A stretch of 64,000 nt of DNA from Dehalococcoidia bacterium (GTDB taxonomy: Bacteria > Chloroflexota > Dehalococcoidia > Lucifugimonadales > UBA1123), in assembly GCA_965214745.1 (NCBI GenBank), contig OZ243978.1, positions 2,722,491 through 2,786,490 on the forward strand, read 5' to 3'. Shown here piece by piece: positions 17,225 through 48,128 of this stretch. Position numbers and translations under genes: made by a program. Position 1 is the first letter of the stretch; each line of letters begins with the position of its first letter. The notes under the pieces are model-generated. The model did no database searches. It had not been told where the DNA came from and worked only from the letters and a program-made list of their open reading frames with translations.

Positions 17225-19234
17225 ATGAGAGCGGCAATTGGTTCTGTTGCGCTGGTCATGATATTGGCTCTGCTGGCGGCGGGCTGCACCAGAGAAGTAG
17301 AGGTGCCGGGTGAAACCGTCATCAAGGAAGTCGTCGTCGAGAAACCGGTCGAGGTAGTCAAGGTAGAGACGGTGGAGGTGCCGGGCGAGACTGTCATCAA
17401 GGAAGTCGTCAAGGTGGAGACGGTAGAGGTGCCGGGCGAAACCGTCATCAAGGAAGTCGTCAAGGAGGTAGTCGTCGAGAAGCCTATCGAGGTAGTCAAG
17501 ACCGAGATCAAAGAGGTAATCGTCGAGAAGCCGATAACCCAGCTCAAGGAAGTGGTTATCATAGCGACCCCCTCCCCCGCCGACATGGCGCCCACCCAGA
17601 TAGTGCCGAGCGGCACGTTCAACGGCGCGATAGGCAGCTTCTCCCCGGTGTCCGGCTGGGGTCCGTCCTGCACCGCGTGTTCGCAGCTGGTGGGGGCGAG
17701 CGTAGGCGAGGCGCTATTCGCCACCGCGCGAGACGAAGAGGGCGCAATCGGGCTGTCCCCGTGGCTGGTGACTAGCTGGACGCTTGCGGACGACGCCTCG
17801 TACAGCGACTTCACCCTTCAAGAAGGCGTGCAGTTCCATCAAGACTTCGGCGAGATGACCGCCGACGATGTGGCGTGGTACTTCAACCTTATCAACACGA
17901 ACACGAACCCCGAATCCAAGCACGACACCGGCGTTCAGATTTTCGACCTAGACGGCGCGGAGGCTATAGACCGCTACACGGTGCGGTTCAACTGGCGCGG
18001 ATACGGCGGCTACACCCTGATGCAGGAGTTCACCGACCTGCAAGAGGGCGTAGAGGTGATGTCCAAGCGCGCCTTCGACACGAGGGGGCAAGAGTGGATG
18101 TCTGAGAACGTGCCTATAACCACAGGCCCGTTCGAGGTGCAGAAGTGGACGCAGGGCGAAGAGATTCGGCTGATTGCGGTTCCCGACCACTGGCGAAAGA
18201 CATCGTACATCGCTAGGGTGAGCGTCTTGGCGGTGCCGGAAGGCACGACGCGGCGCGCGATGCTCGAGTCCGGGCAGGCGCACGCGGCGCACATATCGCT
18301 GAACGATATGCCGCAGCTCATCAACTCCGGCTTCAAGCTGGCGCCGGAGATCATTCAAGGGCAGCTCAACCTAGGCTTCGGCGGCAACTACTGGGAAGAC
18401 ACCCACGCCAAGACGGGCGAGCCACTGGAGCGGGCGCGCGACACGTCCGTTCCATGGGTGGGCGATCCGTTCGAGAACGGTGGCGCATATGACGAGAACA
18501 CGCCCTCCATGCAGCGCTCCAAGAAGGTCCGCTGGGCGCTCTCGCAATCCATAGACCGCGACCTGCTAGCCGATACGGTGCTGAACGGCCTAGGCTGGGG
18601 CATCACCGTTGGGCATATGTCCACCGACGATCCGCTCTACCTACAGAACCCCGGCAGGTGGGACGTGCCATACGACCCCGACGCGGCGAACGCGCTGCTG
18701 GACGAAGCGGGATACGGCGGATGCGAGGGGCTGACGCCCAAGGTGTGGACGGGTCCCAGCGGCACGGTCGTACAACTCTGGGACGCCGTGGGCGTAATGT
18801 GGCAGACCGATTTGGGATGCACGGCTGAGTTCGACCGCACGGACTACTACGCGCAGCACAGACCCGGCATCGTGGCGCGAACGAGCGTGAACATCTACAG
18901 CGGCTGCTGCCCGGGCATGGGCATTTGGCCCATGGAGTGGAGCTTCACTTCACACAACTACCCGGGCGGGTTTGGCGTAGGAATCGAAACGCCCACCCAC
19001 ACGCGGCTGTACCTCGCCAAGCAGCAGGCTGCCGCCACAGGCGCGGACCCCGTGGCTCTGGGGCTGGAACAGCACGACTTCAACCACGAGTGGCAGCTGT
19101 TCTCCGGCATCGTCAGGTTCCCGGATGGCGCGATGTACGACCCGAACGCCATGTACTGGGAAGACATGCGCCCGTACCAGTGGGGCAAGATAGGCGGCTT
19201 GCGCAGCTTCGAGGACATCCAGCTGGTCAGGTAG
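17225..19234 (+). CDS. ABC transporter substrate-binding lipoprotein, family 5 (peptide/nickel/opine type) with long repetitive V/E/K-rich N-terminal linker
   Basis: Start at [21 protein letters not shown] (lipobox). About 90-aa repeat linker, then an SBP_bac_5-like body (...[27 protein letters not shown]...). Confidence 0.8.
17297..17540 (+). repeat. in-frame tandem/interspersed coding repeats (three 39-nt copies encoding [13 protein letters not shown] plus VVEKP(V/I)EVVK copies)
   Basis: Copies at 17297-17335, 17372-17410 and 17423-17461 (gt(a/g)gaggtgccggg(t/c)ga(a/g)ac(c/t)gtcatcaaggaagtcgtc). Related gtcgtcgagaa(a/g)cc motifs continue up to ~17540. Confidence 0.75.
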
Positions 19235-19315
19235 CGGGATATGGCGGCGGACGGGGCGTCGACGCGCTCCGTCCGCCCGACCCGCTGATTCCACAGGCTG
19301 AGATGGATAGGGCGC

Positions 19316-21988: not shown

Positions 21989-23095
21989 ATGCCTAACGAA
22001 TCCCAACCCCGCCGCACCCCGCTATACGATGTCCACGTCGCCCAAGGCGCGCGGCTCATGCCGTTCGCGGGATGGGAGATGCCGATTCGGTACGGCGAGG
22101 GCATCATCGAGGAGACGCGCGCCGCGAGAACGGGCGCGGGGCTGTTCGACGTGTCGCACATGGGGCGGCTGGATGTGTCGGGCGCGGACGCGGCGGCTCT
22201 GCTGAGCGCGGTTCTCAGCGTAGACGCGCGCAGTCTGCGGCGCGGGCGGGCGCGATACAACGTCATCTGCGACGAGCGCGGCGGCATCATCGACGATTGC
22301 ATCGTCTACAGACGCGGCGAGGAACGCTTCTTGCTCATCCCGAACGCGGCTAACGCGGCTGCGGTACTCGCTTGGCTAGCGCGCTGGACGCCGCGCGGCG
22401 CGGACGTAAGCGTCGCAGACACGACGGCGGACGTGGCGATGATAGCCTTCCAAGGTCCGCGCGCGGCGCAGACGCTCCAGCGGCTTTCGGACGACGACCT
22501 CTCGAAGATACGCCCGTTCCGCGCCGCGCCCGCGACGGTGAACGGCGGAGCGGCTTACTTGGCGCGAACCGGCTACACGGGCGAGGATGGCTTCGAGATA
22601 ATGCTGCCCAGCGAGAACGCGGCGGCGCTGTGGCTCGCGCTCTCGGAGCTTGGCGCGAAACCTTGCGGACTCGGCGCGCGCGATGTCTTGCGGCTCGAAG
22701 CGGGATTGCTGCTGCACGGAAACGACATGGATACGTCGGTAGACCCCTACGAAGCGGGCTTGGGCAAGTTCGTAGAGGCGGACAGAGAAGATTACGTCGC
22801 GGGCGCGGCGCTAAGGGCTGTTCGCGACGCGGGCGCCGCCCGAAAGCTGGCGGCGTTCACGATGGTCGGCAGGGGCATCGCGCGGCGCGGGTACGCCATC
22901 CTCGCGGACGGACGCCGCATCGGGGAAGTTTCGTCCGGGGGGCCATCGCCGACGCTTGACTTGAACATAGGCTTGGGCTATGTTCCAATCGCCTACGCGA
23001 AAGCGGGCGCTCGCATCGACATAGAGATACGAGGCCGCCCGGTGGAGGCGAAGATAGCCACCCTACCCTTCTATCGACGGAGAAGGCGCGCATGA
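21989..23095 (+). CDS. gcvT: glycine cleavage system aminomethyltransferase T protein
   Basis: 368 aa. RTPLYDVHVAQGARLMPFAGWEMPIRY..., ...ARTGYTGEDGFEI... Confidence 0.93.
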   Translation: MPNESQPRRTPLYDVHVAQGARLMPFAGWEMPIRYGEGIIEETRAARTGAGLFDVSHMGRLDVSGADAAALLSAVLSVDARSLRRGRARYNVICDERGGIIDDCIVYRRGEERFLLIPNAANAAAVLAWLARWTPRGADVSVADTTADVAMIAFQGPRAAQTLQRLSDDDLSKIRPFRAAPATVNGGAAYLARTGYTGEDGFEIMLPSENAAALWLALSELGAKPCGLGARDVLRLEAGLLLHGNDMDTSVDPYEAGLGKFVEADREDYVAGAALRAVRDAGAARKLAAFTMVGRGIARRGYAILADGRRIGEVSSGGPSPTLDLNIGLGYVPIAYAKAGARIDIEIRGRPVEAKIATLPFYRRRRRA

Positions 23096-23478
23096 ACCCG
23101 GAGAACCTACGTTACTCCAAAGAACACGAATGGCTTGCCGTCGATGACGACGGCGCGGCGGTAATCGGCATCACCCACTTCGCGCAAGACAGCCTTGGCG
23201 ACGTGGTGTTCGTCGAGCTGCCGGAGGTGGGGGCGGACGTCAGCCAGTTCGGGAAGATGGGCGAGATAGAATCCGTCAAAGCCGTATCAGATCTGTACTC
23301 TCCGGTCAGTGGCAAAGTCGCGGCGCGCAACGACGCGCTAGAAGACCTGCCTGAGCTTGTGAACGACAGCCCATACGAAGATGGCTGGATGCTGCGCGTG
23401 GAAATGGCGGACTCGTCCGAGCTGGACAGCCTGCTGAGCGCGTCGGAGTACGAAGCCTTCTTGGCGTCGGAAGCGTAG
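23092..23478 (+). CDS. gcvH: glycine cleavage system H protein
   Basis: 128 aa. YSKEHEWL..., lipoyl-lysine motif GEIESVKAVSDLYSPVSG. Confidence 0.93.
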   Translation: MNPENLRYSKEHEWLAVDDDGAAVIGITHFAQDSLGDVVFVELPEVGADVSQFGKMGEIESVKAVSDLYSPVSGKVAARNDALEDLPELVNDSPYEDGWMLRVEMADSSELDSLLSASEYEAFLASEA

Positions 23479-23487
23479 GCGCGCGCG

Positions 23488-24822
23488 GTGTCGGCGGACA
23501 CATTCCAGTCTCCCTACGCGCCCAACACCGACGACGACAGGCGCGCCATGCTCGCCGCCATAGGCGTCGACTCAGTGGACGAGCTTTTCGCGGACGTTCC
23601 GGCGGGGCATCTGAACTTCGATCTCGATCTGCCATCGGCGCGGGACGAGATGGAGCTGATCCGGCGCGCGGCTCGGCTGGCTGCGAAGAATCGCGCGCCG
23701 GGCGAGTACGCCTGCTTCCTTGGCGGCGGCGCGTACAGGCATCACGTCCCGGCGGTGGTGCGGCATATAGCGTCGCGCAGCGAGTACATGACCGCGTACA
23801 CGCCCTATCAGCCGGAGGTGTCGCAAGGCACGCTGCAAACCGGCTTCGAGTTCCAGAGTATGATCTGCCAGCTCACGGGCATGGACGTAGCCAACCTAGG
23901 CATGTACGATGGATCGACCTCGCTGGCGGAGGCAGCGCTGATGGCGGCGCGCATAACGCGGCGCGAGCGGGTGGCGGTCATGGATACGGTGTCGCCGCTG
24001 TACCGCGACGTTCTGGATACATACACGCAGGCGCCGGGCATCGCGGTGGACACGATAGGCGGCGCGGACGGCGCGGGCATAGGCGCGGATACGGCGTGCG
24101 TCATCGTTCAGCAGCCGAACTTCTTTGGCTGCATGGAGGACGCGCGCGCGCTTGCGAACGCCGCCCACGCCAACGGCGCGCTGCTCATCGTCAGCGTAGA
24201 TCCGGTGTCGCTCGGCATGTTCGAGCCGCCGTCGGGTTACGGCGCGGACATCGTAGTTGGCGAAGGGCAGCCGCTCGGCGTCCCGCCCACGTTCGGGGGC
24301 CCTTACGTGGGGCTGTTCGCTTGCAAGCGGCAGTACATCCGCCAAATGCCGGGCCGCATCGTGGGGCGCACGGTGGATACGCGCGGACGCGAAGCGTTCG
24401 TGCTGACGCTCCAGACCCGCGAACAGCACATCAGGCGCGAGCGCGCCACCTCCAACATATGCACGTCCGTCGCGCTCATCGCGCTCATGTCCACCGTATA
24501 TCTGGCGTCGTTCGGCAAGCGCGGGCTTAGGCGCGTGGCGGAGCTGTGCTACCACAAATCGCACTACGCGGCTCGGCTCATAGCGGATATTCCGGGATAC
24601 AGCCTGCCTATGAACGGCGTGTTCTTCCAAGAGTTCGTCGTAAGCTGCCCGAAGCCGCCCTCGGAGATCAACGAGCGGCTGTTGGACTACGGCATCATCG
24701 GCGGGCTGGACATCAGCGACTCGACGCCGAACGGGATGCTCGTGTGCGTAACCGAAGCGAACCCGCGCGAAGAGATAGAACGGCTGGCAGCGGCTCTGGC
24801 GGAAATCGGCGGGAGGGCGTAG
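23488..24822 (+). CDS. gcvPA: glycine dehydrogenase (decarboxylating) subunit 1
   Basis: 444 aa, GTG start. ...SEYMTAYTPYQPEVSQGTLQ..., ...REQHIRRERATSNICT... Confidence 0.93.
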   Translation: MSADTFQSPYAPNTDDDRRAMLAAIGVDSVDELFADVPAGHLNFDLDLPSARDEMELIRRAARLAAKNRAPGEYACFLGGGAYRHHVPAVVRHIASRSEYMTAYTPYQPEVSQGTLQTGFEFQSMICQLTGMDVANLGMYDGSTSLAEAALMAARITRRERVAVMDTVSPLYRDVLDTYTQAPGIAVDTIGGADGAGIGADTACVIVQQPNFFGCMEDARALANAAHANGALLIVSVDPVSLGMFEPPSGYGADIVVGEGQPLGVPPTFGGPYVGLFACKRQYIRQMPGRIVGRTVDTRGREAFVLTLQTREQHIRRERATSNICTSVALIALMSTVYLASFGKRGLRRVAELCYHKSHYAARLIADIPGYSLPMNGVFFQEFVVSCPKPPSEINERLLDYGIIGGLDISDSTPNGMLVCVTEANPREEIERLAAALAEIGGRA

Positions 24823-26295
24823 ATGAACGATCTGCTCCAGAGATCCGAGCTGGACAAGCGAAAGCTGCTGATGGACCGCAGCCGCGCCGGCCGCGTCGGA
24901 ACTACGCTCCCGCCGCTGGACGTTCCGCCGTCCGAGCTTCCCGACGCCTCGATGCTGCGCGACGATCTAGAGCTGCCGGAAGTGTCGGAAGGCGAAATCG
25001 TGCGCTATTTTTCGCAGATAAGCCAGCTCAACTTCTCAATAGACCACAACTTCTACCCGCTCGGCAGCTGCACGATGAAGTACAACCCGAAGCTGAACGA
25101 CGAGATAGCGTCGCTTGCGGGGTTCTCGCAGATACACCCGCTTCAGCCGGAGTCCACCGCGCAGGGCGCGATAGAATTGCTGTGGGAGTTGCAAGAGCAG
25201 ATCAACGAGATAACCGGCATGGCGGGCTGCTCGCTCGCGCCGATGGCGGGCGCGGACGGCGAGCTTGCGGGGATGCTGATGGCGCGCGCGTACCACCTAG
25301 AGCGCGGCGACGACAAGCGCGACAAGGTTCTGATTCCGGATTCGGCGCACGGCACTAACCCCGCGTCGGCGGCAATGGCGGGGTTCGAGGTGGTGACGCT
25401 GCCATCCAACGCCAACGGCGACACGGATTTGGACGCGCTGCGCGACTCGGTGAACGAAGAGCTTGCGGGGCTGATGATTACGCTTCCCAGCACGCTTGGG
25501 CTGTTCGACACGAACATACTGGAGGTTACGCGGATAGTTCGGGACGCGGGCGGCATAGTGTACGGCGACGGCGCGAACCTGAACGCCATAGTCGGGCGGG
25601 TGAAGTTCGGCGATCTGGGATTCGACGTCATCCACTCGAACCTGCACAAGACGTTCACGCAGCCGCACGGCGGGGGCGGCCCCGGCGCGGGTCCGGTAAT
25701 CGCGGGCGAGCGGCTCGTCGACTACCTGCCCACGCCCGTCGCCGCCAAGCGCGACGGCGACGGCTTCACGCTCGCCGCGCCGCCCAAGTCCATAGGCAGG
25801 ATGGGAGCGTTCCACGGCAACTTCGGCGCGCTCGTTCGCGCGTGGGCGTACATATCCACGCTCGGCAAGGAAGGCATCCCGCGTATAAGCGAAGACGCGG
25901 TTATCAACGCCAACTACATCCTCGCCAAGCTGCGCGGCGTTTACGATCTGCCATACGACCGCAGCTGCATGCACGAGGTGGTCTTTTCGGCGTCGAATCT
26001 TCGGCGCGGGCACGGCGTGAAGGCGCTGGACGTAGCCAAGCGTCTGATAGACTACGGCATCCACCCGCCGACGATGTACTTTCCGCTCATCGTCGACGAG
26101 GCGCTGATGATAGAGCCGACGGAGACCGAATCGAAAGAGACGCTCGATTACTTCATCGAGGTGATGAAAACTATAGCGGCGGAGGCGGCGAGCGACCCCG
26201 ATCTCCTGCTCGAAGCGCCGCACGACACGCCGAACACGCGGCTCGACGAGGCGCGCGCGGCGCGGAGGCCCGATCTGCGGTGGCGACGGGAGTGA
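24823..26295 (+). CDS. gcvPB: glycine dehydrogenase (decarboxylating) subunit 2
   Basis: 490 aa. ...YPLGSCTMKYNPK..., PLP-Lys context HSNLHKTF. Confidence 0.93.
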   Translation: MNDLLQRSELDKRKLLMDRSRAGRVGTTLPPLDVPPSELPDASMLRDDLELPEVSEGEIVRYFSQISQLNFSIDHNFYPLGSCTMKYNPKLNDEIASLAGFSQIHPLQPESTAQGAIELLWELQEQINEITGMAGCSLAPMAGADGELAGMLMARAYHLERGDDKRDKVLIPDSAHGTNPASAAMAGFEVVTLPSNANGDTDLDALRDSVNEELAGLMITLPSTLGLFDTNILEVTRIVRDAGGIVYGDGANLNAIVGRVKFGDLGFDVIHSNLHKTFTQPHGGGGPGAGPVIAGERLVDYLPTPVAAKRDGDGFTLAAPPKSIGRMGAFHGNFGALVRAWAYISTLGKEGIPRISEDAVINANYILAKLRGVYDLPYDRSCMHEVVFSASNLRRGHGVKALDVAKRLIDYGIHPPTMYFPLIVDEALMIEPTETESKETLDYFIEVMKTIAAEAASDPDLLLEAPHDTPNTRLDEARAARRPDLRWRRE

Positions 26296-26426
26296 ATAGG
26301 ATGGAGTGAGTAGGATATTGAGGATTGCGAAATCTCTCCCAACTGCGTAACGCTTAGCCCGAATATCCTGTTCATCCCGTACATCTATGCAAGCAAGCCA
26401 TGAACCAAACCAATGGAGAACGAACC

Positions 26427-26888
26427 ATGTCAGAAGTAGGCGAAGCGGCGCCGGATTTCACCCTGCCCGCCCACAACGGCAGCGCGATAACGCTTAGCGA
26501 CTATCGCGGGAAGAAGAACGTCGTCCTGTCGTTCCACATCTTTTCGTTTACGGGCGGTTGAACGCATCAGGTCTCCTCGATGCGTATCCACAACGCGCTG
26601 TTCGAGGAGAACGATGCCCAGGTGCTGGGCATTAGCTGCGACTCCCGCCCGACGCAGGTCGCGTTCGCGTCCTCTCTGGGGTCCATCCCCTACCCGCTGC
26701 TTGCGGATTTCTGGCCGCACGGCAAGGTGTGCGGCGACTTCGGCGTTCTGAACGAGAACCTCGGCGCGCCGCTGCGCGCTATCGTCATAATCGACAAGCA
26801 AGGCGTCATCCGATTCAAACAAACATACGCCGCCGCGGACGCTCTCGACCCGCGCGACGTAATGGCTGAAGTCGAGAAGCTGGCGTAG
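26427..26888 (+). CDS. peroxiredoxin (AhpC/TSA-BCP type) with in-frame TGA (26559-26561) at the peroxidatic Cys position: probable selenocysteine peroxiredoxin
   Basis: ATG 26427 with GGAG upstream. MSEVGEAAPDFTLPAHNGSAITLSDYRGKKNVVLSFHIFSFTGG-[TGA]-THQVSSMRIHNALFEENDAQVLGISCDS... is in frame with tracked ORF 26580..26888. Joined length is 153 aa. Confidence 0.65.
26562..26585 (+). promoter_or_regulatory. candidate bacterial SECIS hairpin
   Basis: ACGCATC-AGGTCTCCTC-GATGCGT is a perfect 7-bp stem starting at the nucleotide after the TGA. The loop contains AGGUCU, as in the E. coli fdhF SECIS apex. The spacing to the UGA is shorter than in fdhF. Confidence 0.5.
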
Positions 26889-26913
26889 CGGCGCTAGCTG
26901 GATTGGCTCCGAG

Positions 26914-27738
26914 ATGATGCTGGACAGGCGTGGCGCGTTCCGCGAGGGCGAGCATATTCAGCTGCTCGACCGTCGCGGGCGCAGCTACCTGTTTCTACTT
27001 GCGCCCGGGCGGCTGTTCGAGTCGCACATCGGCAGCGTTCCCGCGTCGGAAATCATCGGGCGCGAAGAAGGCAGCTGGCTGACGACGAGCAGGGGGCATC
27101 GCCTAATGGCGGTTCGCCCCACGCTCGCCGAGCTGACGCTGCGAATGCCGCGACTGGCTGCGGTGATGTATCCCAAAGACCTCGCCGCGATGCTGGTGTA
27201 CGCCGACGTGTTTCCGGGCGCGCGCGTTCTGGAGGCGGGCGCAGGCTCGGGCGCGACGACGATGACGCTGCTGCGAGCCGTGGGCGACGCGGGGCGCGTG
27301 TTCACATACGACGTTCGGCAAGACATGTTGGAACGCGCCGAGACGAACGTCGCGCGCTACTTCGAGCGGTTCGACAACCTAGAGCTGAAGCTGGGCGACG
27401 TGTACGAGGGCTTCGAGGAGCGCGACATAGACAGGGTCATCCTAGACCTGCCCGAGCCGTGGCACGTCGCGCCTCACGCATCCGAGCGCATGACTGCGGG
27501 CGGCGTGTTCTTCGGGTTCGTCCCCACCGTGCCGCAGGTGGAAGAGCTCGTGCGGACGCTCCGCGCTCTACGCACCTTCGGCATGATAGAGATTATGGAA
27601 GTGATGATGCGGCAATGGAACGTGAGCGGGCGCAGCGTCCGCCCATCGCACCGCATGGTTGGGCATACGGGCTTCATCGTCACGGCGCGCCGAACCTCTC
27701 CGCGAGAGTCGGCAAACGCTCCCGACGGCAACGGGTAG
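26914..27738 (+). CDS. trmI: tRNA (adenine(58)-N1)-methyltransferase (TrmI/GCD14 family)
   Basis: 274 aa. N-terminal beta domain (GEHIQLLDRRGRSYLFLLAPG...), YPKDLAAM, SAM motif VLEAGAGSGATT, DLPEPW. Confidence 0.85.
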   Translation: MMLDRRGAFREGEHIQLLDRRGRSYLFLLAPGRLFESHIGSVPASEIIGREEGSWLTTSRGHRLMAVRPTLAELTLRMPRLAAVMYPKDLAAMLVYADVFPGARVLEAGAGSGATTMTLLRAVGDAGRVFTYDVRQDMLERAETNVARYFERFDNLELKLGDVYEGFEERDIDRVILDLPEPWHVAPHASERMTAGGVFFGFVPTVPQVEELVRTLRALRTFGMIEIMEVMMRQWNVSGRSVRPSHRMVGHTGFIVTARRTSPRESANAPDGNG

Positions 27739-27771
27739 CCGTCCGCCCCCGCCCGGCGGACGCGGCTAGCG

Positions 27772-29046
27772 CTACTCCGCTGAGAAATGCCACAGGCTTT
27801 CTAGCGCAATGCCGCCGGACGGTGGCGACGGCGGGAGATGCCGCGCGCCCAACATCGGCGCGGCTAGCCGCTCGACGATGCAGGCGGGCGCGTCCAAATC
27901 CGTCGAGCGCGATATTCCGCTGTCCTTCTCCTGAAAAAGCGCCCTGAACGCGCCGAGTCCATCGGGCGCGGCTAGCCTACGGATGGCGCGCAGGTTGGCA
28001 AGCTCGGCAGCGCGATCCAACCCGGCAGACGCGATATAGCTCTCCATGCGGCGGATGCCGAGCGAGGTCAGCAACTCCGCCTGCGTGGTCAGGAACACGG
28101 GCGCGAGTCCGACGGCTCTCCCCGACTCTATCAGCGCGCTGAAGTCGACGCGCGCCGTGATGTCTTGGCGTCCGACGCGCTGGTATGGGCTGCCGCCGGC
28201 TGTGTGGCGGTAGTGCGTCTGAAGCGTCCCGCCGGCGCGGCGCGGCGAGTACAGCTCTCCAGCCTCGTCTCCGTAGTCGATGGTGAGCGCGAACCCGCGA
28301 TCCAGCGCGGCGGCGGCGCTGGCGGCCCAACCGTCTATGCCCGCGTTCACCTCGCCGCGATAGCCGTCCGGAAGGCGCGCCAGCGCGGGCGCGAGCCGCT
28401 CCGCAATGAGCGGCGTAGTAGGCTCGCGCAGCCGCTCCGTGAAGCTGCCGTCAGCGCCTGCCGCGACGAAGACTTCGAGCGGACGGCCGCCTTCTATCTG
28501 GAAGCGATGAACGGGGAAGGCGTCTATCAGCTCGTTGGAGACGACACACCCGACTACGCCTCGCAGAGGCAGCGCCGTAGACGCCGCCCACGAGACGCCG
28601 GCGGGCGTGGACGGACGGGAGCGCGCGGACATGCGGTCTATGGCGACGTATCGGACGGCGCGCGCGAAGTCCGGCAGCTGCCGTTCCGCAAACTCCATCA
28701 GATCGACGGCGAGGATGCCATCGCCCGCGCCGCACTCGACTATCCAGAACGGGGATGGGCAGCCTAACGCGCGCCACATGGCGAATATCTGCGCTGCGAG
28801 CAACGCGCCGAAGGCCGGATGCGCCGTCGGGCTGGTGAAGTAGTCCCCACCCGCGCCGATCCGCCCGCGCCGCGCATAGTAGCCGTCGGGGTAGTAGAGC
28901 GCTATCTCCATGAACTCGGCGAACGGGATGCCGCCCGAATCCGCGATTCGGCGGCGGATCTCCCTTTCGGCGCCTGTCGGCTCGGGGGCAGGCGCGCGCG
29001 TGGACAGCAGGGCGCGGATGCTAACTTCGGCGCGAAGGCGGCTCAT
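27772..29046 (-). CDS. SAM-dependent methyltransferase, MidA/NDUFAF7 (DUF185) family
   Basis: 424 aa. IPFAEFMEIALYYPDGYYARRG..GAGGDYFTSPTAHPAFG, ...IVECGAGDG..., ...VVSNELIDAFPVHRF. Confidence 0.8.
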   Translation of the reverse strand: MSRLRAEVSIRALLSTRAPAPEPTGAEREIRRRIADSGGIPFAEFMEIALYYPDGYYARRGRIGAGGDYFTSPTAHPAFGALLAAQIFAMWRALGCPSPFWIVECGAGDGILAVDLMEFAERQLPDFARAVRYVAIDRMSARSRPSTPAGVSWAASTALPLRGVVGCVVSNELIDAFPVHRFQIEGGRPLEVFVAAGADGSFTERLREPTTPLIAERLAPALARLPDGYRGEVNAGIDGWAASAAAALDRGFALTIDYGDEAGELYSPRRAGGTLQTHYRHTAGGSPYQRVGRQDITARVDFSALIESGRAVGLAPVFLTTQAELLTSLGIRRMESYIASAGLDRAAELANLRAIRRLAAPDGLGAFRALFQEKDSGISRSTDLDAPACIVERLAAPMLGARHLPPSPPSGGIALESLWHFSAE

Positions 29047-29113
29047 GGCAATGCGCGCAACGCGGGCGAGCTAAGAATGTATTTCCAACGCCCTTTGCGG
29101 GCGATGGGGAAGC

Positions 29114-29314
29114 CTAGCGTCTGCCGGCGCTCTTCCGCTGACGCGCCGCGCGTCTCCGCCTGCCGTCCCTGTCCCAGCCCGAACCTTGTATGGAGTTCTT
29201 GAACTCTTGCGACGCCCCGCACTTCTTGCATGTTCCCATGCTCGTGGGCCCGTTCGGCTGATCTATCATCCAGTGATGCGTGCAGTCGGATACGACTACG
29301 GACTCGTCAGTCAA
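29114..29314 (-). CDS. small zinc-ribbon-like protein with basic tail (hypothetical)
   Basis: 66 aa. CTHHW...CKKCG four-ligand pattern and a C-terminal RRRRAARQRK tail. Same strand and tightly spaced between gltA and the MidA-type gene. Confidence 0.4.
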   Translation of the reverse strand: MTDESVVVSDCTHHWMIDQPNGPTSMGTCKKCGASQEFKNSIQGSGWDRDGRRRRAARQRKSAGRR

Positions 29315-29344
29315 TTGCGGCTTCCTTCCTCCGTGCGCGATAAG

Positions 29345-30484
29345 CTAGGCTCTCTCTTCTATCGGGACGTACTCGACATCCATGGGGCCTGTGTAGAGCA
29401 GCCTGGGCCTAAGCAGAATGTTGTTGTCGAATTGCTCGATCACTTGCGCCGTCCAACCCGGCACCCGCCCCATGGCGAATATGGAGATGAAGAGGTCATC
29501 GGGAATGCCGAGCAGGTAGTATATCGCGCCGGAGAAGAAGTCTACGTTCTGGTAGATTCCTCGGCGTCGGTACGGCTCCATCACCTCGATTACAGCCTGA
29601 AGAATCTGGAACCACTCCGGTTCGCCCTTGCGCTCGCCCAGCTCTTTGGCGTCGTCTTGCAGGTGTAGCGAGCGCGGGTCTACGGCTTTGTAGACGCGAT
29701 GCCCGAAGCCCATGATGCGCCCGCCGCCGCGGATGCGCTCGCGGACGTAGTTTTCGGCGTTCTCCTCGCTGCCTATCTCCTGCGTCATCTTCATCACTTC
29801 TTCAGCCGCGCCGCCGTGCGACGGTCCCTTGAGAACGGCTATGCCGGTGGTTACGGCGCAGTGGAGATCCGCTTGGGTGGACGCGGCTACGCGCGCGCCG
29901 AACGCGGAAGCGTTGATGCCATGCTCGGCGTGCAGAACGAAGTCTTTGTCTATGAGCGCGGCGTCTTGCTCCGTAGGCTCTTCGCCGAAGAGCATATACA
30001 GGAAGTTGGCGGCGTGGTTGAGATTGGGGTTCGGCGCGAGCGGCTCGTTGCCGTCTCTGATGCGCGCGTGAGCCGCGACTATCGTAGCCGCCTGAGCGGT
30101 GAGGCGTATGCCCTTGCGAAGCGTCGCCTCGGACGAGTTGTCTTCGGTGTCCGGGTCGTATGCGGAGAGGGCGGATATCGCTGAGCGAAGCACATCCATC
30201 GGGTGGGAGTTTCGGGTTAGGCGGATGATGTCGAGTATCTCGCCGGGAAGCTCCCGCGCCGCCTTGAGGTCGGCGTCGAAGGCGTCGAGCCGCGTCTGCG
30301 TGGGAAGCTCGCCGTTCATCACGAGGTAAGCCGTCTCTTCGAAGTTGGACTTTTCGGCGAGGTCGTGGATGTCGTACCCGCGATAGAGCAGCTTGCCGAT
30401 GCCGCCGTCGATGAAACTGGACTTCGTTCTGTCGATGTACACTTCGCGAAGGCCGCGATGAAGCTGCACCTTCTGTTCCGTCAT
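29345..30484 (-). CDS. gltA: citrate synthase
   Basis: 379 aa. ...HAEHGINAS..., ...GFGHRVYK..DPR..., ...NVDFFSG... Confidence 0.93.
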   Translation of the reverse strand: MTEQKVQLHRGLREVYIDRTKSSFIDGGIGKLLYRGYDIHDLAEKSNFEETAYLVMNGELPTQTRLDAFDADLKAARELPGEILDIIRLTRNSHPMDVLRSAISALSAYDPDTEDNSSEATLRKGIRLTAQAATIVAAHARIRDGNEPLAPNPNLNHAANFLYMLFGEEPTEQDAALIDKDFVLHAEHGINASAFGARVAASTQADLHCAVTTGIAVLKGPSHGGAAEEVMKMTQEIGSEENAENYVRERIRGGGRIMGFGHRVYKAVDPRSLHLQDDAKELGERKGEPEWFQILQAVIEVMEPYRRRGIYQNVDFFSGAIYYLLGIPDDLFISIFAMGRVPGWTAQVIEQFDNNILLRPRLLYTGPMDVEYVPIEERA

Positions 30485-30757
30485 ATCGTGTCCTCCCGGG
30501 CTATGCTTAGCGCCGTCTCAACAGCCTAAGCATGCGCCAAGACAGTTTGCGGCAAGTGTCAGCGGGATGCTCGGTCGCCATCGGGAACCGCCCCCCGCGG
30601 AAGCAAGGGAATTCTAGCATTGGGCAGGTATAGTGTCAAGAAATCCGCGCCATTGCGGAGCGTGATAAAGGCGGCGCTTGCGGCGCGCCGAGCGCCGCGC
30701 CCCCACGACTGCGTTGCGTTGTTCACAATAGACAGCTCACAGTATATACTCCTGTGG

Positions 30758-30847
30758 GTTCCTCCCCCGCGCGCGGGGCGGAGGCGAGGATTCGACACGC
30801 GAACTATTGCCTGAGACAGTTCCTCCCGCGCGCGCGGGGCGGAGGCG
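30758..30847 (+). CRISPR. candidate orphan mini-CRISPR (2 repeats of 29 nt, 1 spacer of 32 nt; type I-E-like geometry)
   Basis: R1 30758-30786 GTTCCTCCCCCGCGCGCGGGGCGGAGGCG. Spacer 30787-30818 AGGATTCGACACGCGAACTATTGCCTGAGACA. R2 30819-30847 GTTCCTCCCGCGCGCGCGGGGCGGAGGCG (28/29 identical). AT-richer sequence lies upstream. No cas genes in the window. Confidence 0.35.
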
Positions 30848-30870
30848 GGCGAGCGGCGCGAGGCGTACAG

Positions 30871-31509
30871 ATGAATTCTATGCAGCCAGACGAGGCTCCG
30901 GAGGTCGTCGTCCTCAGGCTTCCGCTGTATGTGCGCGCGCTGACCCAGCTCCAACGCGAAGGAAGCTCCGTAGTCAGCTCTCAGCATCTGGGCGAGCGGC
31001 TTCAGATGACGCCCGCGCAGATACGAAAAGACCTAAGCTATTTCGGCAGGTTCGGCAAACAGGGGCGCGGATACAGCATCCAGTTCCTGCTGGACGAACT
31101 TCGCGTGATTCTGGGGCTTACGCGCGAATGGCGCGCGTGTCTCGTGGGCGTGGGCAGGCTGGGACGCGCTATCATCAACTACACGGGATTCGCGCCCGAG
31201 GGGTTCTCTATCGTAGCGGCGTTCGACAGCTCGAACGATCAGGTGGGCGCGTGCGTGGGCGATCTGCATGTGCGCTCTATGGACGCGCTGCCGACGGCGG
31301 TTCGAGAGCTGGACGTGAGCATCGGCATCGTGGCGGTGCCGGCGGCACAGGCGCAATCGGTCATCGACAAGCTGGTAGAGAACGGCGTTCACGGCATACT
31401 GAACTACGCGCCCGTCGCGCCCTACGTGCCGCGCGGCGTGGTGGTTCGGAACATAGACCCGGTGCTGTCGCTCCAGTCCATGACGTTCTACTTGGCGAAG
31501 ACGCGATAG
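30871..31509 (+). CDS. rex: redox-sensing transcriptional repressor Rex
   Basis: Start at MNSMQPDEAPEVVVLRLPLYVRAL (ATG 30871), 212 aa. Winged-helix region ...SSQHLGERLQMTPAQIRKDLSYFG..G..GRGY, then Rossmann motif CLVGVGRLG. Confidence 0.9.
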   Translation: MNSMQPDEAPEVVVLRLPLYVRALTQLQREGSSVVSSQHLGERLQMTPAQIRKDLSYFGRFGKQGRGYSIQFLLDELRVILGLTREWRACLVGVGRLGRAIINYTGFAPEGFSIVAAFDSSNDQVGACVGDLHVRSMDALPTAVRELDVSIGIVAVPAAQAQSVIDKLVENGVHGILNYAPVAPYVPRGVVVRNIDPVLSLQSMTFYLAKTR

Positions 31510-32066: not shown

Positions 32067-34381
<2,315 letters not shown>

Positions 34382-34450
34382 GAGCGGCTATCCTGTCCTT
34401 GCCCGCTCGGTTAGAGCGAGCTCCATTCTTGTCTCGATATGCCTAATTGC

Positions 34451-34903
34451 CTAATTATCGCTCTGAACGCGGCCGAGGGGGGAGCTAATCTCGTCAACCT
34501 CGATTTTCACCTCAGGGATTCGGTGTATATGCCAGCCCATTTGCAAGTCTATCATAATGTTGCCTTCCACGACGTCTTTCAGGTTTTCGCGCGCTTCCTC
34601 ATAGGTTTCGCCATATGTGAAAGCGCCGTTCATGTCCGGCACGATGGCGGTTATTGTTCCATCTTCCTCGCGGGTATACTCGGCGAGTTCCAACGCAGCC
34701 TGTATGTACTCGGGTAGAGAGAATCCGACGAGCTTCTTGGGGAAGGCGGGCAGGTCTTTAGGGTCTTGTACGTTGTCGGACTGGGCGCGTTCGAGATAGA
34801 AGTCGTATTCCCGCTTGTGGCGTTCCAGCAGCCGCGCAAGCGCGACCGACTCCGCGCTCGACGGGGCATCGGTTAGCTCCGGCCGTGTTATGGAAGCGGG
34901 CAT
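34451..34903 (-). CDS. HicB/UPF0150-like domain protein (no HicA partner seen)
   Basis: 150 aa. Core ...DGTITAIVPDMNGAFTYGETYEEARENLKDVVEG... matches the HicB N-terminal (UPF0150) pattern vPdlpG..t.GeT.eEA. About 80-aa N-terminal extension of unknown type. Lies in the lower-GC insert. Confidence 0.45.
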   Translation of the reverse strand: MPASITRPELTDAPSSAESVALARLLERHKREYDFYLERAQSDNVQDPKDLPAFPKKLVGFSLPEYIQAALELAEYTREEDGTITAIVPDMNGAFTYGETYEEARENLKDVVEGNIMIDLQMGWHIHRIPEVKIEVDEISSPLGRVQSDN

Positions 34904-34975
34904 GGTCTTACTATCCTAATAAGAATCGGTGAACGGTATCGAATCTTGGGGCGCTCTTTCCTTAGTTCGCGCGTT

Positions 34976-35311
34976 TTAGAAACTCAGGCATAGGCGGGCG
35001 GCGGTGGCGTGGTTGCGCTTCATCCAATCGACCATCTCGCTGAAGAAGTTTTCCGCCCGTGATCTGTCCTCATCGGAAACTTGGCGTCCATAGTCAGCCT
35101 CGCCGCCGACGTACTCGTTCATCAAGTGGGTGAGATAGGCATCATAATCCACCGAGCCGGTGTTAGCGTCGCGGAGCGCGTTCCAGTCCATTTCAAAGAC
35201 GATGATGCCATCCTCTCCGGGTTCGTAAGTCTCTATCAGTTGACATGTCAAACGGCGCGGCGGACGCGGAAGCCAACCATCCACCTTCAATATGCCGTAG
35301 TCTATCGCCAT
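34976..35311 (-). CDS. hypothetical small acidic protein
   Basis: 111-aa ORF rich in D/E (…YEPGEDGIIVFEMDWNALRD…GGEADYGRQVSDEDRSRAENFFSEMVDW…). Same strand, between the GmrSD-like gene and the HicB-like gene. Confidence 0.4.
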   Translation of the reverse strand: MAIDYGILKVDGWLPRPPRRLTCQLIETYEPGEDGIIVFEMDWNALRDANTGSVDYDAYLTHLMNEYVGGEADYGRQVSDEDRSRAENFFSEMVDWMKRNHATAARLCLSF

Positions 35312-35351
35312 TTTCGCTTGTCCTTGGCGTTTGCGTGGGTTTTCGTTATCG

Positions 35352-37040
35352 CTAGAGTCGCCACTCGGTTTTGAGCGCGTCTATCAGCGCCTCTTGTCGG
35401 CGTTTCAGAACCCTCGGCGTCCACGCGGTTTCGCTCACTACCTGAGTAGTTATAGCGAAGTTTGTGACGTTGCTTCTTTGGAAGTATTCGGTCTTCTTTC
35501 GGCGGAAATCATAGTTGTTGGCTCTGGAATTTTTACTGCGGGACAGCAGAACCAAGTTCGCCAGCCGATGCGTCCACTCTTCACGGTCATCTTCATTGAA
35601 GGTTCGCACCCACTCGGATTCATCATCAGGCGATTGCGGGAGGACGTGTTCCACCGTAATGATCTTGTGGTCATAGGTCGCGCCATCCGCCCTAGCTAAA
35701 ACGCTGTCTAGACGCAATAGCAGCGGACGCGCGAATCGGGAGACGGGACGCGGACGATAAATCGGATCATCCAAAAGCGCTACAACGTCCCTGCGCTCGT
35801 CGTCGGATAGTTGAATCTTTTCGATCGTCTCGGCTAGATCCGATTCTTCACGAAGGGCAGATGACAAAACCGGCCTGTATCGCAGAATCCTGGGGTCGCG
35901 CCTAGTTCCGATGACAAGCATCGCATAGGCGAGTCGGTCGAGTTCCGTAAGCAGTCTCAGCAGAGTCGCGGGGGCGTCCTTGTGCTTGTCGTAAAACACC
36001 ATCGCAACCGGAATCCAGTCCTCATTGTCGAGTCTGTTGAGGTATCCGAGCATACGGTTCACGTCTTCGGCATGTACATTGCTTTCGTATTCTTCCACGC
36101 CGGTGACAACCTTGAACGCTTTGGCATATGGAACCAGTGTTTCATCGACGAACTCAATCCCGTTGACTCTGACCAGCACATCTTCCTTGAACGCCTTAGA
36201 CAATTCTCTGTGAAACCTGTTCCCAGTTTCGATTACGAATATGTGGGCGAATAGTTCTCGGAATTTATCCCTGCCAAGTTCGTCTTCGATGTCTTCCCAC
36301 AGATTGGTGTATTCGTCCGCGCGATTGCCGGGTATCTCACCGATAACGTCGGATTTGAGTATATCGGTTGGAGTCAGGTCTCTGCCTCTGGCGTTGAGTA
36401 CGGAGAATATCCTATGCGCGGAATCGCGGTTGTAAGCCGATACTACAACGAGATAACACCTAGTAATTACAAACTGCGATAGAGCGTCGCGTTGTTCGTG
36501 ACTCAACCCAGACAGTTTGGAATAGAGGAAGTGAGCATTGTCGAATATCAGTTTACGGCTGTCGGAAACATGCACAGAACCTTTTTCGACGAAGTCGGCT
36601 ATTTTGCCGGACACCTGCACGTTGTCGTGAAAGAAATCTTGATCTCGTTCCCTGATCTCCAGACGAAAGCGGTCTCTGCGCCCTGCGAACACATCCCGTC
36701 TTTCACGAATACGCTCATCGAGACTGCTGCGTTTGTCATCGTCGTCGGTCAACTCGCGCAGAACACAGAACAGCATCGTCAACGTCGTCAAACGCTGCTG
36801 TCCGTCTATGACTTCATGCTTCCGAGAGTCCGGGCGGGCAATCAGAACGATGCTGCCGAGAAAGTACGGCTCGGCGGTCGTCTCATCCTCCATAGCGCCT
36901 AGAAGGTCATTCAGGAGCTCTTCGGTCTCTTCGGGCGTCCAGGAGTAAGGCCTCTGATACACAGGCATGCGGAAGAGATAGTCGTTATCGAACAACTTGC
37001 CAAGCGCGACTTCTTTGGCTTCGAAGGTGTTCTGCACCAA
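35352..37040 (-). CDS. DUF262 + DUF1524 protein (GmrSD/BrxU/SspE-type, putative modification-dependent type IV restriction nuclease)
   Basis: 562 aa. N-terminal ParB-like DUF262 motifs FRMPVYQRPYSWTPEE and VIDGQQRLTTL. C-terminal His-Me-finger DUF1524 motifs ITVEHVLPQSP...WTHRLANLVLLSRSKNSRANN. Confidence 0.85.
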   Translation of the reverse strand: MVQNTFEAKEVALGKLFDNDYLFRMPVYQRPYSWTPEETEELLNDLLGAMEDETTAEPYFLGSIVLIARPDSRKHEVIDGQQRLTTLTMLFCVLRELTDDDDKRSSLDERIRERRDVFAGRRDRFRLEIRERDQDFFHDNVQVSGKIADFVEKGSVHVSDSRKLIFDNAHFLYSKLSGLSHEQRDALSQFVITRCYLVVVSAYNRDSAHRIFSVLNARGRDLTPTDILKSDVIGEIPGNRADEYTNLWEDIEDELGRDKFRELFAHIFVIETGNRFHRELSKAFKEDVLVRVNGIEFVDETLVPYAKAFKVVTGVEEYESNVHAEDVNRMLGYLNRLDNEDWIPVAMVFYDKHKDAPATLLRLLTELDRLAYAMLVIGTRRDPRILRYRPVLSSALREESDLAETIEKIQLSDDERRDVVALLDDPIYRPRPVSRFARPLLLRLDSVLARADGATYDHKIITVEHVLPQSPDDESEWVRTFNEDDREEWTHRLANLVLLSRSKNSRANNYDFRRKKTEYFQRSNVTNFAITTQVVSETAWTPRVLKRRQEALIDALKTEWRL

Positions 37041-37087
37041 TTTACTCTACATCCGGCTTTATCGATCGTCGTTGCGTTTCACTTGCC

Positions 37088-38599
37088 CTAGTAAGGCACG
37101 CTCGCCTTGAAGTCTTCCAGCGCGGCGTTCAGCGCCTCTCCGGTTTCGTCGCTTATCGTCTTCTCGTCGCGGATAGTCGTCAGCAGCTCGGGGCGGCTGG
37201 CGTCCATGTAGCTGTGGAGCGCGCTCTCGAACGCGATGACGCGCGGTATCTCCACGTCGTCTAGGAAGCCGTTGACCAGCGCGTAGATGGCAATTACTTG
37301 CTTCTCGAACGGCAGCGGCACGTTTTGGCCCTGCTTGAGTATCTCGGTGGCTCGCTGTCCGCGCTCCAGCTGGCGGCGGGTGGCGGGGTCCAGATCCGAG
37401 GTGCCGAACTGGGCGAACGTGACCAGCTCTCGATACTGCGCGAGGTCTAGCCGCAAGGTGCCGGCTACGGAGCGCATGGCGCGCGTCTGCGCGGAGCTGC
37501 CGACGCGGGAGACGGACAGCCCGGCGTTCACGGCGGGGCGGATGCCGGAGTTGAACAGCTCGGTCTCTAGGTATATCTGCCCATCGGTAATCGATATGAC
37601 GTTGGTAGGCACGTATGCGGACACGTCTCCCGCCTGCGTCTCGATTATGGGCAGCGCAGTTATGGAGCCGCCGCCGTGCTCTTCGTCCATCTTGGCGGCG
37701 CGCTCCAGCAGGCGGCTGTGCAGGTAGAACACGTCGCCGGGGTACGCCTCGCGTCCGGGCGGGCGGCGCAGCAAGAGAGACATCTCGCGGTACGCCCATG
37801 CGTGCTTGGATAGGTCGTCGTAGACTACGAGCGCGTCTTTGCCGTCTTCCATGAACCGCTCCGCCATGGCGCAGCCGGCGTATGGGGCTAGGTACTGCAT
37901 CGGCGCGGGGTCGGCGGAGTTGGCGGCGACGACGATTGTGTGTTCCATCGCGCCGTATCCGTCCAGCAGCGCGACGGTCTGCGCCACCTTGCTCGCCTTC
38001 TGCCCGATTGCCACGTAGATGCAGATGAGGTCTCCGCCGCGCTGGTTGATGATGGTGTCTAACGCGATGGCGGATTTTCCGGTGGAGCGGTCGCCGATGA
38101 TAAGCTCGCGCTGTCCGCGCCCTATGGGTATCATGGCGTCTATAGCCTTGATGCCGGTCTGCACGGGCGTGTCTACGGACATGCGCGTGGAGACGTCCGG
38201 CGCGACTACTTCCACCGGGCGGTTTTCGGATGTGTCTATCGGGCCTTTGCCGTCTATCGGTTCGCCTAGCGCGTTGACTACGCGCCCCAGCAGCGCTTCG
38301 CCTACGGGGACTTCTACGATGCGGCCTGTGCTGCGAACGCGGGAGCCTTCCTTGACGGCGAGCGGGTCGCCCATGATGACTGAGCCAACCGAGTCTTCTT
38401 CTAGGTTGAGCGCCATGCCCATGACGCCGCCCTCGAATTCGAGCAGCTCGGTATAGGCTGCGCCAGCCAGCCCGTGAACTTGGGCTACGCCGTCGCCGAC
38501 TTCTATCACAGTGCCTTCGTCTACAGCTTCGAGCTGCTGCTCCCAGTTCTCGATTTGGCTCCGTATTACGGAGGCTATGTCTTGCCCTCTGACCGCCAT
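37088..38599 (-). CDS. atpA: F0F1 ATP synthase subunit alpha
   Basis: 503 aa. Walker A GDRSTGKS, ...[43 protein letters not shown]... Confidence 0.96.
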
Positions 38600-38685
38600 T
38601 TATGCCTCCCCGCCGAACGCGGCGCGCTCGGTCCGGTTGTCGGTTGTTTCATGGTGAATGCGCGAGCGGTCGCGCCGCCGCTCGG

Positions 38686-39225
38686 CTATCGCCTCTGAAC
38701 CAGCTCTCGGCGCATGTCTCGCAGTCGCGCGCGCGCGCTTCCGTCTATAACCTTGTCGCCAATGCGTATGACGATGCCGCCGAGCAGATCCGAATCGACC
38801 CGCGTGGTTACGCGAACGTCTTTGTCGGACATCCGGGAGAGCGACTCCGCAGCCTGCCGCAGCTGGTCGTCCGACAGCGGCGCGGCGGAAACTATCTCGG
38901 CGCGCTCTATGCCGTTGTGGTCGTCCAGCATCTCCTGATAGCGGTCCGCTATTTCGGGGAGGATGTGGACGAGGTTTCGGCTGGTGAGCAGCGCCATGAG
39001 GTTGAGCGCGAGCGGAGACACTGAGCCGCCGAGGCTCTCGCGGATGACGCGCTCTTTGCGCGCGAGCGAGATGCGCGGCGCGCTGAGCGTCTGCCGCAGC
39101 TGCTGGCTGGCTGCCGAGTCCGCCAGCAGCGTCAGGTCGTCTAGCCAGCGCTCCAGCTCGCCGCTGTCTGCTGCAAGCTCGAACACTGCTTGGGCGTATC
39201 TTCTTGTCGAGGCGCCTGCGGGCAT
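38686..39225 (-). CDS. atpH: F0F1 ATP synthase subunit delta
   Basis: 179 aa. ...RRYAQAVFELA... OSCP/delta pattern, and its position between atpF and atpA. Confidence 0.85.
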   Translation of the reverse strand: MPAGASTRRYAQAVFELAADSGELERWLDDLTLLADSAASQQLRQTLSAPRISLARKERVIRESLGGSVSPLALNLMALLTSRNLVHILPEIADRYQEMLDDHNGIERAEIVSAAPLSDDQLRQAAESLSRMSDKDVRVTTRVDSDLLGGIVIRIGDKVIDGSARARLRDMRRELVQRR

Positions 39226-39273
39226 AGGTTGTTGCCTGCCTTTGCTGGGCGGCTGCGGAGACGGCGGCGCGCG

Positions 39274-39777: not shown

Positions 39778-39881
39778 GCTTGCTTCACCTCGCCCGATTC
39801 GCGCTTGCCGATGGTGTCTTGCGCCCTCTTCCCGCGCGGCGGGGACGCTCCGTTAGACGAATTTGGATTTAAGCCGCGTCG

Positions 39882-41265
<1,384 letters not shown>

Positions 41266-45975: not shown

Positions 45976-46163
45976 CGTTCCTCCTGTGTTTTGCTTATCG
46001 ACTCATCGCAAAACCGACGCCGCGCTAGGCGAACGTCAGCCTGCCTTTGGGTTTTGGAATCGGTCTCGTCATGCGCGTCGCGTCCGGGAAGCTCGGGGAC
46101 TTCGGCATAATCGGCAATAGTCGCCGCCCCCCGGGAAGTCGTCGCTCGCTTTCCATCGCGAGA

Positions 46164-48099: not shown

Positions 48100-48128
48100 C
48101 TCGGTGAAAGCCGTGCTAGAATGGGGCT

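Follow-up and report, generated by a model that had tools for sequence, protein, structure and literature searches.

The DNA between positions 26427 and 26888 on the forward strand of the analysed window, a stretch of 64,000 nucleotides from a Dehalococcoidia bacterium, very probably represents one single gene, which codes for an AhpE-like one-Cys type peroxiredoxin with selenocysteine (Sec) as its peroxidatic residue and was missed by ORF calling. The reading frame starts with an ATG at 26427, preceded by a Shine-Dalgarno-like GGAG at 26415-26418 (8 nt 5' of the ATG), and extends to the stop codon TAG at 26886-26888 with the TGA at 26559-26561 as the sole interruption. The annotated ORF of 102 amino acids at 26580-26888 shares its frame with the upstream ATG, and the joined product, in which the TGA codes for the proposed Sec45, comprises 153 amino acids. 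The sequence-only reading of this DNA had put forward the same start codon, ribosome-binding motif, in-frame TGA and product length, all of which were confirmed in the sequence. Moreover, the start at 26427 matches the N-termini of the orthologues, where the tblastn matches begin at residue 1. The earlier claim that ORF calling had missed the gene holds as well, because the public calls show either a protein of 102 amino acids or a tryptophan at the codon in question. Our protein search returned many relatives of 102 amino acids with 75-81% identity, all starting at the equivalent of Met52, besides proteins of 152 amino acids with Trp at the position of residue 45 and one protein of 152 amino acids carrying Cys there (P0026).

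The affiliation of the joined product with the peroxiredoxins is supported by a profile search and by a search of the PDB sequences. With Cys put for the TGA, it matched the Pfam family AhpC-TSA (PF00578) with an E-value of 2e-32 and 112.2 bits (cut-off 26), and the match spans residues 4-130, corresponding to profile positions 1-123 of 124. Among sequences of solved structures, the best relative is AhpE (Rv2238c) of Mycobacterium tuberculosis, with 1.1e-31 over residues 2-142. The best seven PDB matches are all of the AhpE type, six of them being M. tuberculosis AhpE entries (1.1e-31 to 1.4e-29), while the next match is a typical 2-Cys peroxiredoxin at 1.9e-16. In the alignment with AhpE, the TGA falls on Cys45 (FTGIC versus FTGG-TGA) and not elsewhere, which bears out the earlier suggestion that it occupies the position of the peroxidatic Cys. 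Both proteins have the same length, the F-T-G-x-C/U loop, the conserved Arg and a common DFWPHG motif, and neither possesses an obligatory resolving Cys. The protein described here differs from M. tuberculosis AhpE (PDB 1XXU, 1XVW, 4X0X, 5C04) by Sec in place of Cys45 and by Ile38 in place of Pro.

The orthologue scan, which used one genome per species, revealed 483 loci encoding relatives, of which the best 80 were analysed. All of these 80 loci come from metagenome-assembled genomes (MAGs) of distinct species that are labelled Dehalococcoidia, SAR202 cluster or Chloroflexota, and the matches in them cover residues 1-153. A TGA is found at the codon for residue 45 in all of the best 80 loci, down to approximately 60% protein identity. 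The codon is embedded in the invariant motif L-S-F-H-[IV]-x-x-F-T-G-G-TGA-T-x-Q, which reads SFTGG-U-T[HDN]Q in the best 80 loci. Three positions expected to take part in catalysis, Thr42 (codon at 26550-26552), the proposed Sec45 (TGA at 26559-26561) and Arg117 (codon at 26775-26777), are invariant among all 81 family members. Thr42 represents the T of the TxxU active-site motif and aligns with the Thr of the FTGIC segment of AhpE, whereas Arg117 aligns with the Arg of its segment NRGTFVVD and corresponds to the catalytic Arg that peroxiredoxins have in common. The Pro expected in the PxxxTxxC motif was not found. Its position is taken by Ile38 in the window, by Ile in 74 and by Val in 7 of the 81 members, and it is always preceded by an invariant His. 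The Cys homologue P0054 also has the Pro-less HV form; more distant Cys homologues show the usual HP or YP. The missing Pro is a peculiarity of this sub-family, and the protein can still be assigned to the peroxiredoxins on account of its profile match and its remaining catalytic residues. Cys71 is frequent, being present in 72 of the 81 members, but it is not universal, and eight of the 81 members do not contain any Cys at all. Hence, the catalytic cycle cannot depend on an intramolecular resolving Cys, and an external reductant would be needed. As far as can be judged from these alignments, the absence of an obligatory resolving Cys fits the one-Cys AhpE type, which works with an external reductant.

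Peroxiredoxins with Sec at the active site are not new. The prototype of those with a TxxU motif, PrxU of Eubacterium acidaminophilum, was demonstrated biochemically (Sohling et al. 2001, cited in PMC13188914). The Sec-containing Prx proteins with TxxU form an established family in the Sargasso Sea and Global Ocean Sampling (GOS) selenoproteomes and are abundant in marine metagenomes (PMC1088965, PMC2398784), 253 sequences being reported from GOS (PMC2398784), and a genome survey from 2006 listed 12 such selenoprotein genes. The gene in our window resembles them in the AhpC/TSA fold family (PF00578), in the replacement of the peroxidatic Cys by Sec (here T42-G-G-U45), in the hairpin that follows the UGA within the coding region, in the abundance among marine bacteria and in the existence of many Cys homologues. 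It differs from PrxU in that the closest characterised relative is of the AhpE type, that all 81 members have Ile or Val instead of the Pro of PxxxTxxU, and that the loop of the hairpin is mostly without the consensus G. The NCBIfam equivalog for PrxU, NF040737, gave only 58.8 bits against its cut-off of 270, and no NCBIfam model reached its own cut-off with the product of 153 amino acids. Given the TxxU motif and the PF00578 match, the gene most likely belongs to this known kind of Sec-peroxiredoxin and represents at most a sub-family, which is characterised by the AhpE-like affiliation, the missing Pro, the G-less hairpin loop and a fixed neighbourhood of core genes in Dehalococcoidia/SAR202.

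The insertion of Sec in bacteria is guided by a stem-loop (bacterial SECIS, bSECIS) that directly follows the UGA inside the coding region, for which E. coli fdhF is the prototype. A structure of this kind was identified at 26572-26610 on the forward strand by covariation analysis, folding and synonymous resampling of the orthologous sequences. The underlying alignment of 73 distinct sequences covers positions -6 to +72 relative to the TGA and is free of gaps. In the window the RNA is predicted to form a two-tier hairpin with a minimum free energy (MFE) of -19.1 kcal/mol, in which a lower stem (26572-26580 / 26602-26610) and an upper stem of 5 bp (26581-26585 / 26593-26597) are separated by a 3' bulge (26598-26601), and the apical loop AUCCACA (26586-26592) has 7 nt. 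The conserved core of 8 bp, 26572-26579 / 26603-26610, reads UCUCCUCG / CGAGGAGA. In this core, 93.2% of the cells in the alignment are paired, compared to 49-65% when the partner strand is slid by 1-3 columns, and at three of the eight pairs both partners have changed (C-G to U-A, G-C to A-U; 41 cells). None of 500 shuffles reached these values for pairing and covariation. The covarying changes affect synonymous positions in the codons for Ser-Ser and for Phe-Glu-Glu, and such synonymous compensatory changes are the classic signature of an RNA constraint that lies over a coding one.

Folding of single sequences gave the same architecture in nearly all of the 73 orthologues, with 7-10 bp in the lower stem, 4-8 bp in the upper stem and a 3' bulge or small internal loop between them. 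The upper stem varies in sequence and register among the sub-clades, and the apical loop has mostly 5-9 nt. Because of this difference in register, RNAalifold recovered only four lower-stem pairs from the codon-locked alignment, and explicit pair counting together with folds of each sequence was used in place of its consensus. When codons were resampled synonymously with the peptide kept, the window sequence had a z-score of -3.1 (10 of 1000 resampled sequences were as stable), and the mean over the 73 sequences was -2.7. The hairpin is not the most stable stretch of 42 nt in the GC-rich peroxiredoxin gene. No match to Rfam was found in the hairpin region, neither at the gathering threshold nor at E-values up to 10, a result which is uninformative. 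At the equivalent place of the more distant Cys homologues L084, L085 and L086 (45-52% identity) the hairpin was not seen (z-scores of -0.4, -0.9 and 0.0), and the close Cys form L081, which has TGC at the codon, retains it with a z-score of -3.0, which a recent change of TGA to TGC would lead one to expect.

A different hairpin had been pointed out in the sequence-only reading, namely the one formed by ACGCATC (26562-26568) and GATGCGT (26579-26585) directly after the TGA, on the forward strand. These two segments are indeed perfect reverse complements of 7 bp in the window, and the motif AGGTCT lies in the loop of 10 nt between them as had been described. The interpretation of 26562-26585 as SECIS did not stand, since it is perfect in only one of the 73 distinct orthologous sequences, which is the window itself, only 57.9% of its cells are paired, and its covariation score of 0.040 hardly differs from the shuffle mean of 0.036. 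Its loop begins 7 nt past the UGA, outside the window of 16-37 nt in the bSECIS model (PMC13188914). Unconserved, free of covariation and with a loop too near to the UGA, this hairpin was ruled out as SECIS. The hexamer AGGUCU, to which a parallel with the apex of the fdhF element had been attached, occurs in 32 of the 73 orthologous sequences. It is in the loop of the unconserved hairpin at 26569-26574 and, unlike in fdhF, extends into the 5' arm of the conserved lower stem (from 26572) instead of lying in the loop of that structure. We propose 26572-26610 as the candidate SECIS in place of 26562-26585.

The comparison of this candidate with the bacterial SECIS model is favourable in most respects. 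Among the criteria given in PMC13188914 are a spacing of 16-37 nt from the UGA to the apical loop, a loop of 3-9 nt, an upper stem of 4-16 bp, an MFE of at most -7.5 kcal/mol and a G as first or second nucleotide of the loop. Counted from the UGA, the window has 10 nt to the beginning of the stem and 24 nt to that of the apical loop, and the latter distance ranges from 17 to 31 nt in all 73 sequences. The loop of 7 nt in the window and of 3-9 nt in 70 of the 73 sequences, the upper stem of 5 bp in the window, and an MFE of -7.5 kcal/mol or lower in 70 of the 73 sequences likewise lie within the ranges of the model. The conserved structure also resembles the bSECIS prototype of fdhF as a stem-loop in the coding region directly after the UGA, here with covarying paired positions. 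It departs from the consensus in its loops, which are A/C-rich (for example AUUCACA and UACAAC) and usually without the G. One of the first two loop nucleotides is a G in 17 of the 73 sequences; the other 56 have no G there, and the AUCCACA loop of the window has none. The hairpin thus agrees with three of the four bSECIS criteria and is without the loop G. According to the database BSepDB, 12.6% of the catalogued bacterial selenoprotein genes have no canonical SECIS (PMC13326102), therefore, a G-less loop is not disqualifying. Nevertheless, it is at the missing loop G that the case for the RNA element is weakest.

From these features the following course of events can be envisaged. When the ribosome reaches the UGA at 26559-26561, the hairpin at 26572-26610 would act as bacterial SECIS as in the established Sec pathway. 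It would recruit SelB-GTP loaded with Sec-tRNA(Sec), and the UGA would be read as Sec and not as stop. By analogy with the rest of the peroxiredoxin family, Thr42 and Arg117 would activate the selenolate of Sec45, which would attack the peroxide and be converted into a selenenic acid, and an external thiol reductant would then restore the reduced form. We infer the recognition of the SECIS by SelB, the actual incorporation of selenium, the substrate and the reductant from this pathway and this family. The mycothiol/mycoredoxin system serves as the reductant of AhpE. To our knowledge, this system is not expected in Chloroflexota.

The genes for the Sec machinery were searched for as well. ARAGORN detected one tRNA in the window, which is a tRNA-Pro, and no tRNA-Sec was found by this program in the window or in 60 orthologous loci. 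Motif scans of six-frame translations did not reveal SelA or SelD in the window and the 80 loci (1.5 Mb). In a protein search with a masked SelA core, none of the best 120 matches with a named source was from Dehalococcoidia; these matches belonged mostly to Klebsiella and other Enterobacterales, with a few of the Aquifex type and from NC10. The literature on the class is favourable to the presence of Sec machinery in Dehalococcoidia. In BSepDB, whose species all possess the Sec pathway, two MAGs of Dehalococcoidia rank among the top ten selenoprotein-rich bacteria, having 49 and 46 selenoprotein genes, respectively (PMC13326102). The isolate name of one of these two MAGs is in the UUID style that also occurs in many of the loci analysed here. 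Selenoproteins in Chloroflexi had been counted by an early survey (PMC1794560). Further selenoprotein genes were sought by looking in the window for in-frame TGA codons flanked by coding signal on either side, and in the loci for a TGA conserved among them; only the peroxiredoxin gene qualified.

The fact that neither selA, selD nor tRNA-Sec turned up in the window and the loci scanned is compatible with another explanation, according to which the UGA is read through without Sec, either with near-cognate insertion of Trp, Cys or Arg or by a recoding specific to the lineage, and the hairpin merely promotes the readthrough. The loop without the canonical SECIS G and the Trp that some gene callers put at the codon point in the same direction. 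However, the codon is located exactly at the position of the catalytic Cys, where an active enzyme requires either Cys or Sec. Furthermore, TGA serves as normal stop codon in other genes of the window, where it terminates 16 of the 41 long ORFs with high GC3, gcvT and gcvPB among them, i.e. TGA is not reassigned in this organism. The Trp-containing proteins are output of gene callers, and their Trp most probably goes back to the use of an alternative genetic code on short contigs; one of them (P0001) is identical to the translation of the orthologous locus L028 save at the TGA and one other residue. Finally, the position of the hairpin fits the bSECIS window and the class is reported to be rich in selenoproteins (PMC13326102). 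A readthrough without Sec is therefore regarded as improbable. The proposal of a Sec enzyme, already voiced as probable from the sequence, gains further weight from the TGA in 80 of 80 loci, the covarying hairpin downstream, the selection acting on both sides of the codon and the existence of Cys/Sec pairs. The column of the TGA corresponds to Cys in AhpE, and TGC is found there in the close homologue L081 and in the more distant L084, L085 and L086, which provides the Cys/Sec pairs.

Selection on the coding sequence was compared between the two parts of the gene. Between the window and its orthologues, pN was 0.16 and pS 0.73 over the 40 codons upstream of the TGA, and the corresponding values were 0.21 and 0.70 over the 100 codons downstream. 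In eight unsaturated comparisons of the window with orthologues, dN/dS amounted to approximately 0.15 upstream and 0.16 downstream. Purifying selection acts alike on both sides of the TGA, and the coding constraint continues across the UGA. Because selection is equal on both sides, the N-terminal 44 codons are translated in the frame of the TGA. These values speak against the assumption that the UGA is a genuine stop, which would yield a peptide of 44 residues and a separate C-terminal fragment of 102 residues starting from the ATG at 26580, since the constraint on the 40 codons before the TGA equals that on the part behind it, in the same frame. It is true that gene callers report the ORF of 102 amino acids (P0008 and many orthologues) and that Met52 offers a possible restart in the window. 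In many orthologues, however, Met52 is replaced by Phe (FRVHN...), i.e. the C-terminal piece has no conserved start, which makes a separate C-terminal protein unlikely. The fragment of 102 residues would also be without Thr42 and the peroxidatic residue. Such a split gene thus appears even less credible than readthrough without Sec. Least probable of all is a pseudogene in which the TGA goes back to an error of sequencing or assembly or to a recent inactivating mutation of TGC or TGT. As the sequence-only reading had cautioned, a single-base change gives the same picture in one genome, and TGC in L081 and TCA (Ser) in a close relative represented by two assemblies (L082, L083) show that the codon can mutate. 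An error or a private pseudogene is, however, effectively refuted by the 80 loci, which belong to different species and many independent assemblies and all carry the TGA at this codon, down to approximately 60% protein identity. Purifying selection on both halves and the covarying hairpin downstream speak against it as well.

One gene for a Sec-containing peroxiredoxin remains the best supported reading, and it invites some speculation on the peculiarities of the clade. It is conceivable, though we consider it rather unlikely, that the clade uses a lineage-specific non-canonical SECIS class together with a diverged SelB and a Pro-less HI(F/Y)SFTGGU peroxiredoxin with chemistry adapted to selenium. 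As part of the same tentative joint reading, this SECIS class might combine a lower stem of considerable length with an internal bulge and a short upper stem whose register varies, topped by an A/C-rich loop that has no consensus G.

The genomic neighbourhood of the gene is conserved. On the same strand, it lies 131 nt 3' of gcvPB, the last gene of the glycine cleavage cluster gcvT-gcvH-gcvPA-gcvPB (21989-26295; Pfam GCV_T, GCV_H, GDC-P, GcvP2_C), and 25 nt 5' of a gene for a TrmI/GCD14-type tRNA methyltransferase (26914-27738, also forward; Pfam GCD14 with 3.2e-28, TrmI-like_N). Next past the TrmI gene, a Methyltransf_28 gene and a citrate synthase gene follow on the opposite strand. The gcv genes are situated upstream in about 50 of the 80 loci, the TrmI gene is directly downstream in 77 of 80, and citrate synthase follows in 73 of 80. 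The gcv genes are conserved neighbours and do not belong to the recoding device. Around the peroxiredoxin gene, neither a sigma-70-like promoter nor a terminator stood out. The conserved gene order indicates that the gene is old and not a mobile addition; within the Dehalococcoidia/SAR202 clade it belongs to the core genes inherited vertically and has a gcvTHP-prx-trmI neighbourhood. In the rather unlikely joint reading mentioned above, the position beside the glycine cleavage genes might reflect a reductant linked to a lipoyl protein. The AhpC-AhpD-lipoamide relay of mycobacteria provides an analogy for a reductant of this kind.

Our findings do not change the knowledge on how selenocysteine is encoded or what peroxiredoxins do. 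They concern a core antioxidant gene of a very abundant clade of the ocean and the subsurface, which is stored in public protein sets as a catalytically dead fragment of 102 residues or with a Trp in the active site. The family is not recognised by name. As no NCBIfam model reaches its cut-off, automated pipelines would leave the gene truncated and probably could not rescue it. Furthermore, the 73 natural variants of a G-less hairpin in a coding region provide material to widen the models of the bacterial SECIS. Finally, the right annotation would add one more selenoenzyme to the redox biology and the selenium demand of SAR202/Dehalococcoidia.

The active site of the probable selenocysteine (Sec) family of AhpE-like peroxiredoxins deviates from the peroxiredoxin PxxxTxxC motif at a position other than the catalytic one. 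The Pro of this motif is universally conserved in peroxiredoxins. At the corresponding position (Ile38 in the window protein, codon 26538-26540), each of the 81 family members, i.e. the window protein and those from the best 80 of 483 related loci, has either Ile or Val. The residue before it is an invariant His, resulting in the motif LSFH[IV]xxFTGGU.

Public gene predictions of this family, collected among the related proteins from the protein search (P0001-P0061), include two wrong forms. The first is a fragment of 102 aa (or 100/101 aa) starting at an internal Met, the second is 152 aa long and has the TGA translated as Trp, which suggests that a genetic code with TGA as Trp was used in the gene calling of short contigs.

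The gene order gcvT-gcvH-gcvPA-gcvPB, peroxiredoxin, trmI, followed on the opposite strand by Methyltransf_28 and citrate synthase genes (21989-30484 in the window), is kept across the clade. Among the 80 loci, TrmI was found next to the peroxiredoxin gene in 77, citrate synthase in 73 and gcv genes in about 50. In the window, only 25 nt separate the peroxiredoxin stop from the trmI start, suggesting that the two genes are co-transcribed. Between the citrate synthase gene and that of the ATP synthase beta subunit lies a gene (30754-31509, plus strand) for a Rex-type redox-sensing repressor with Put_DNA-bind_N and CoA-binding domains.

The F1Fo ATP synthase operon (32067-41265, minus strand) is split between atpA (37088-38599) and atpG (33518-34381) by an insertion of about 2.7 kb (34382-37087), which is low in GC (0.49-0.56 versus about 0.63). 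It contains genes for a GmrSD-family restriction endonuclease (35352-37040) and a HicB/UPF0150-like antitoxin (34451-34903) as well as a small ORF (34976-35311) that gave no Pfam match. Within 45976-48128 and 17815-19315, the longest ORFs are low in third-position GC; the three ORFs tested there (46047-46724, 46770-48107 and 17948-18358) had no Pfam matches and are thus tentative coding frames.

Close relatives with other catalytic codons retain the SECIS-like hairpin. In the Cys form P0026 (L081:521-979, GCA_044345325.1; 62% identity to the window protein), the codon is TGC and the full hairpin is kept (-20.4 kcal/mol, z = -3.0 from synonymous-codon resampling); this suggests that Sec was recently converted to Cys and that the hairpin is a relic. 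In another relative, P0005, whose cluster comprises 31 member sequences, the catalytic codon is TCA (Ser), which was seen in two independent ENA assemblies (L082:1091-1549, L083:679-1137), and the hairpin downstream is intact. Peroxidase activity should be lost with Ser at the peroxidatic position. This form could represent a natural variant that is inactive or has been repurposed, or a lineage in which Sec decoding has been lost.
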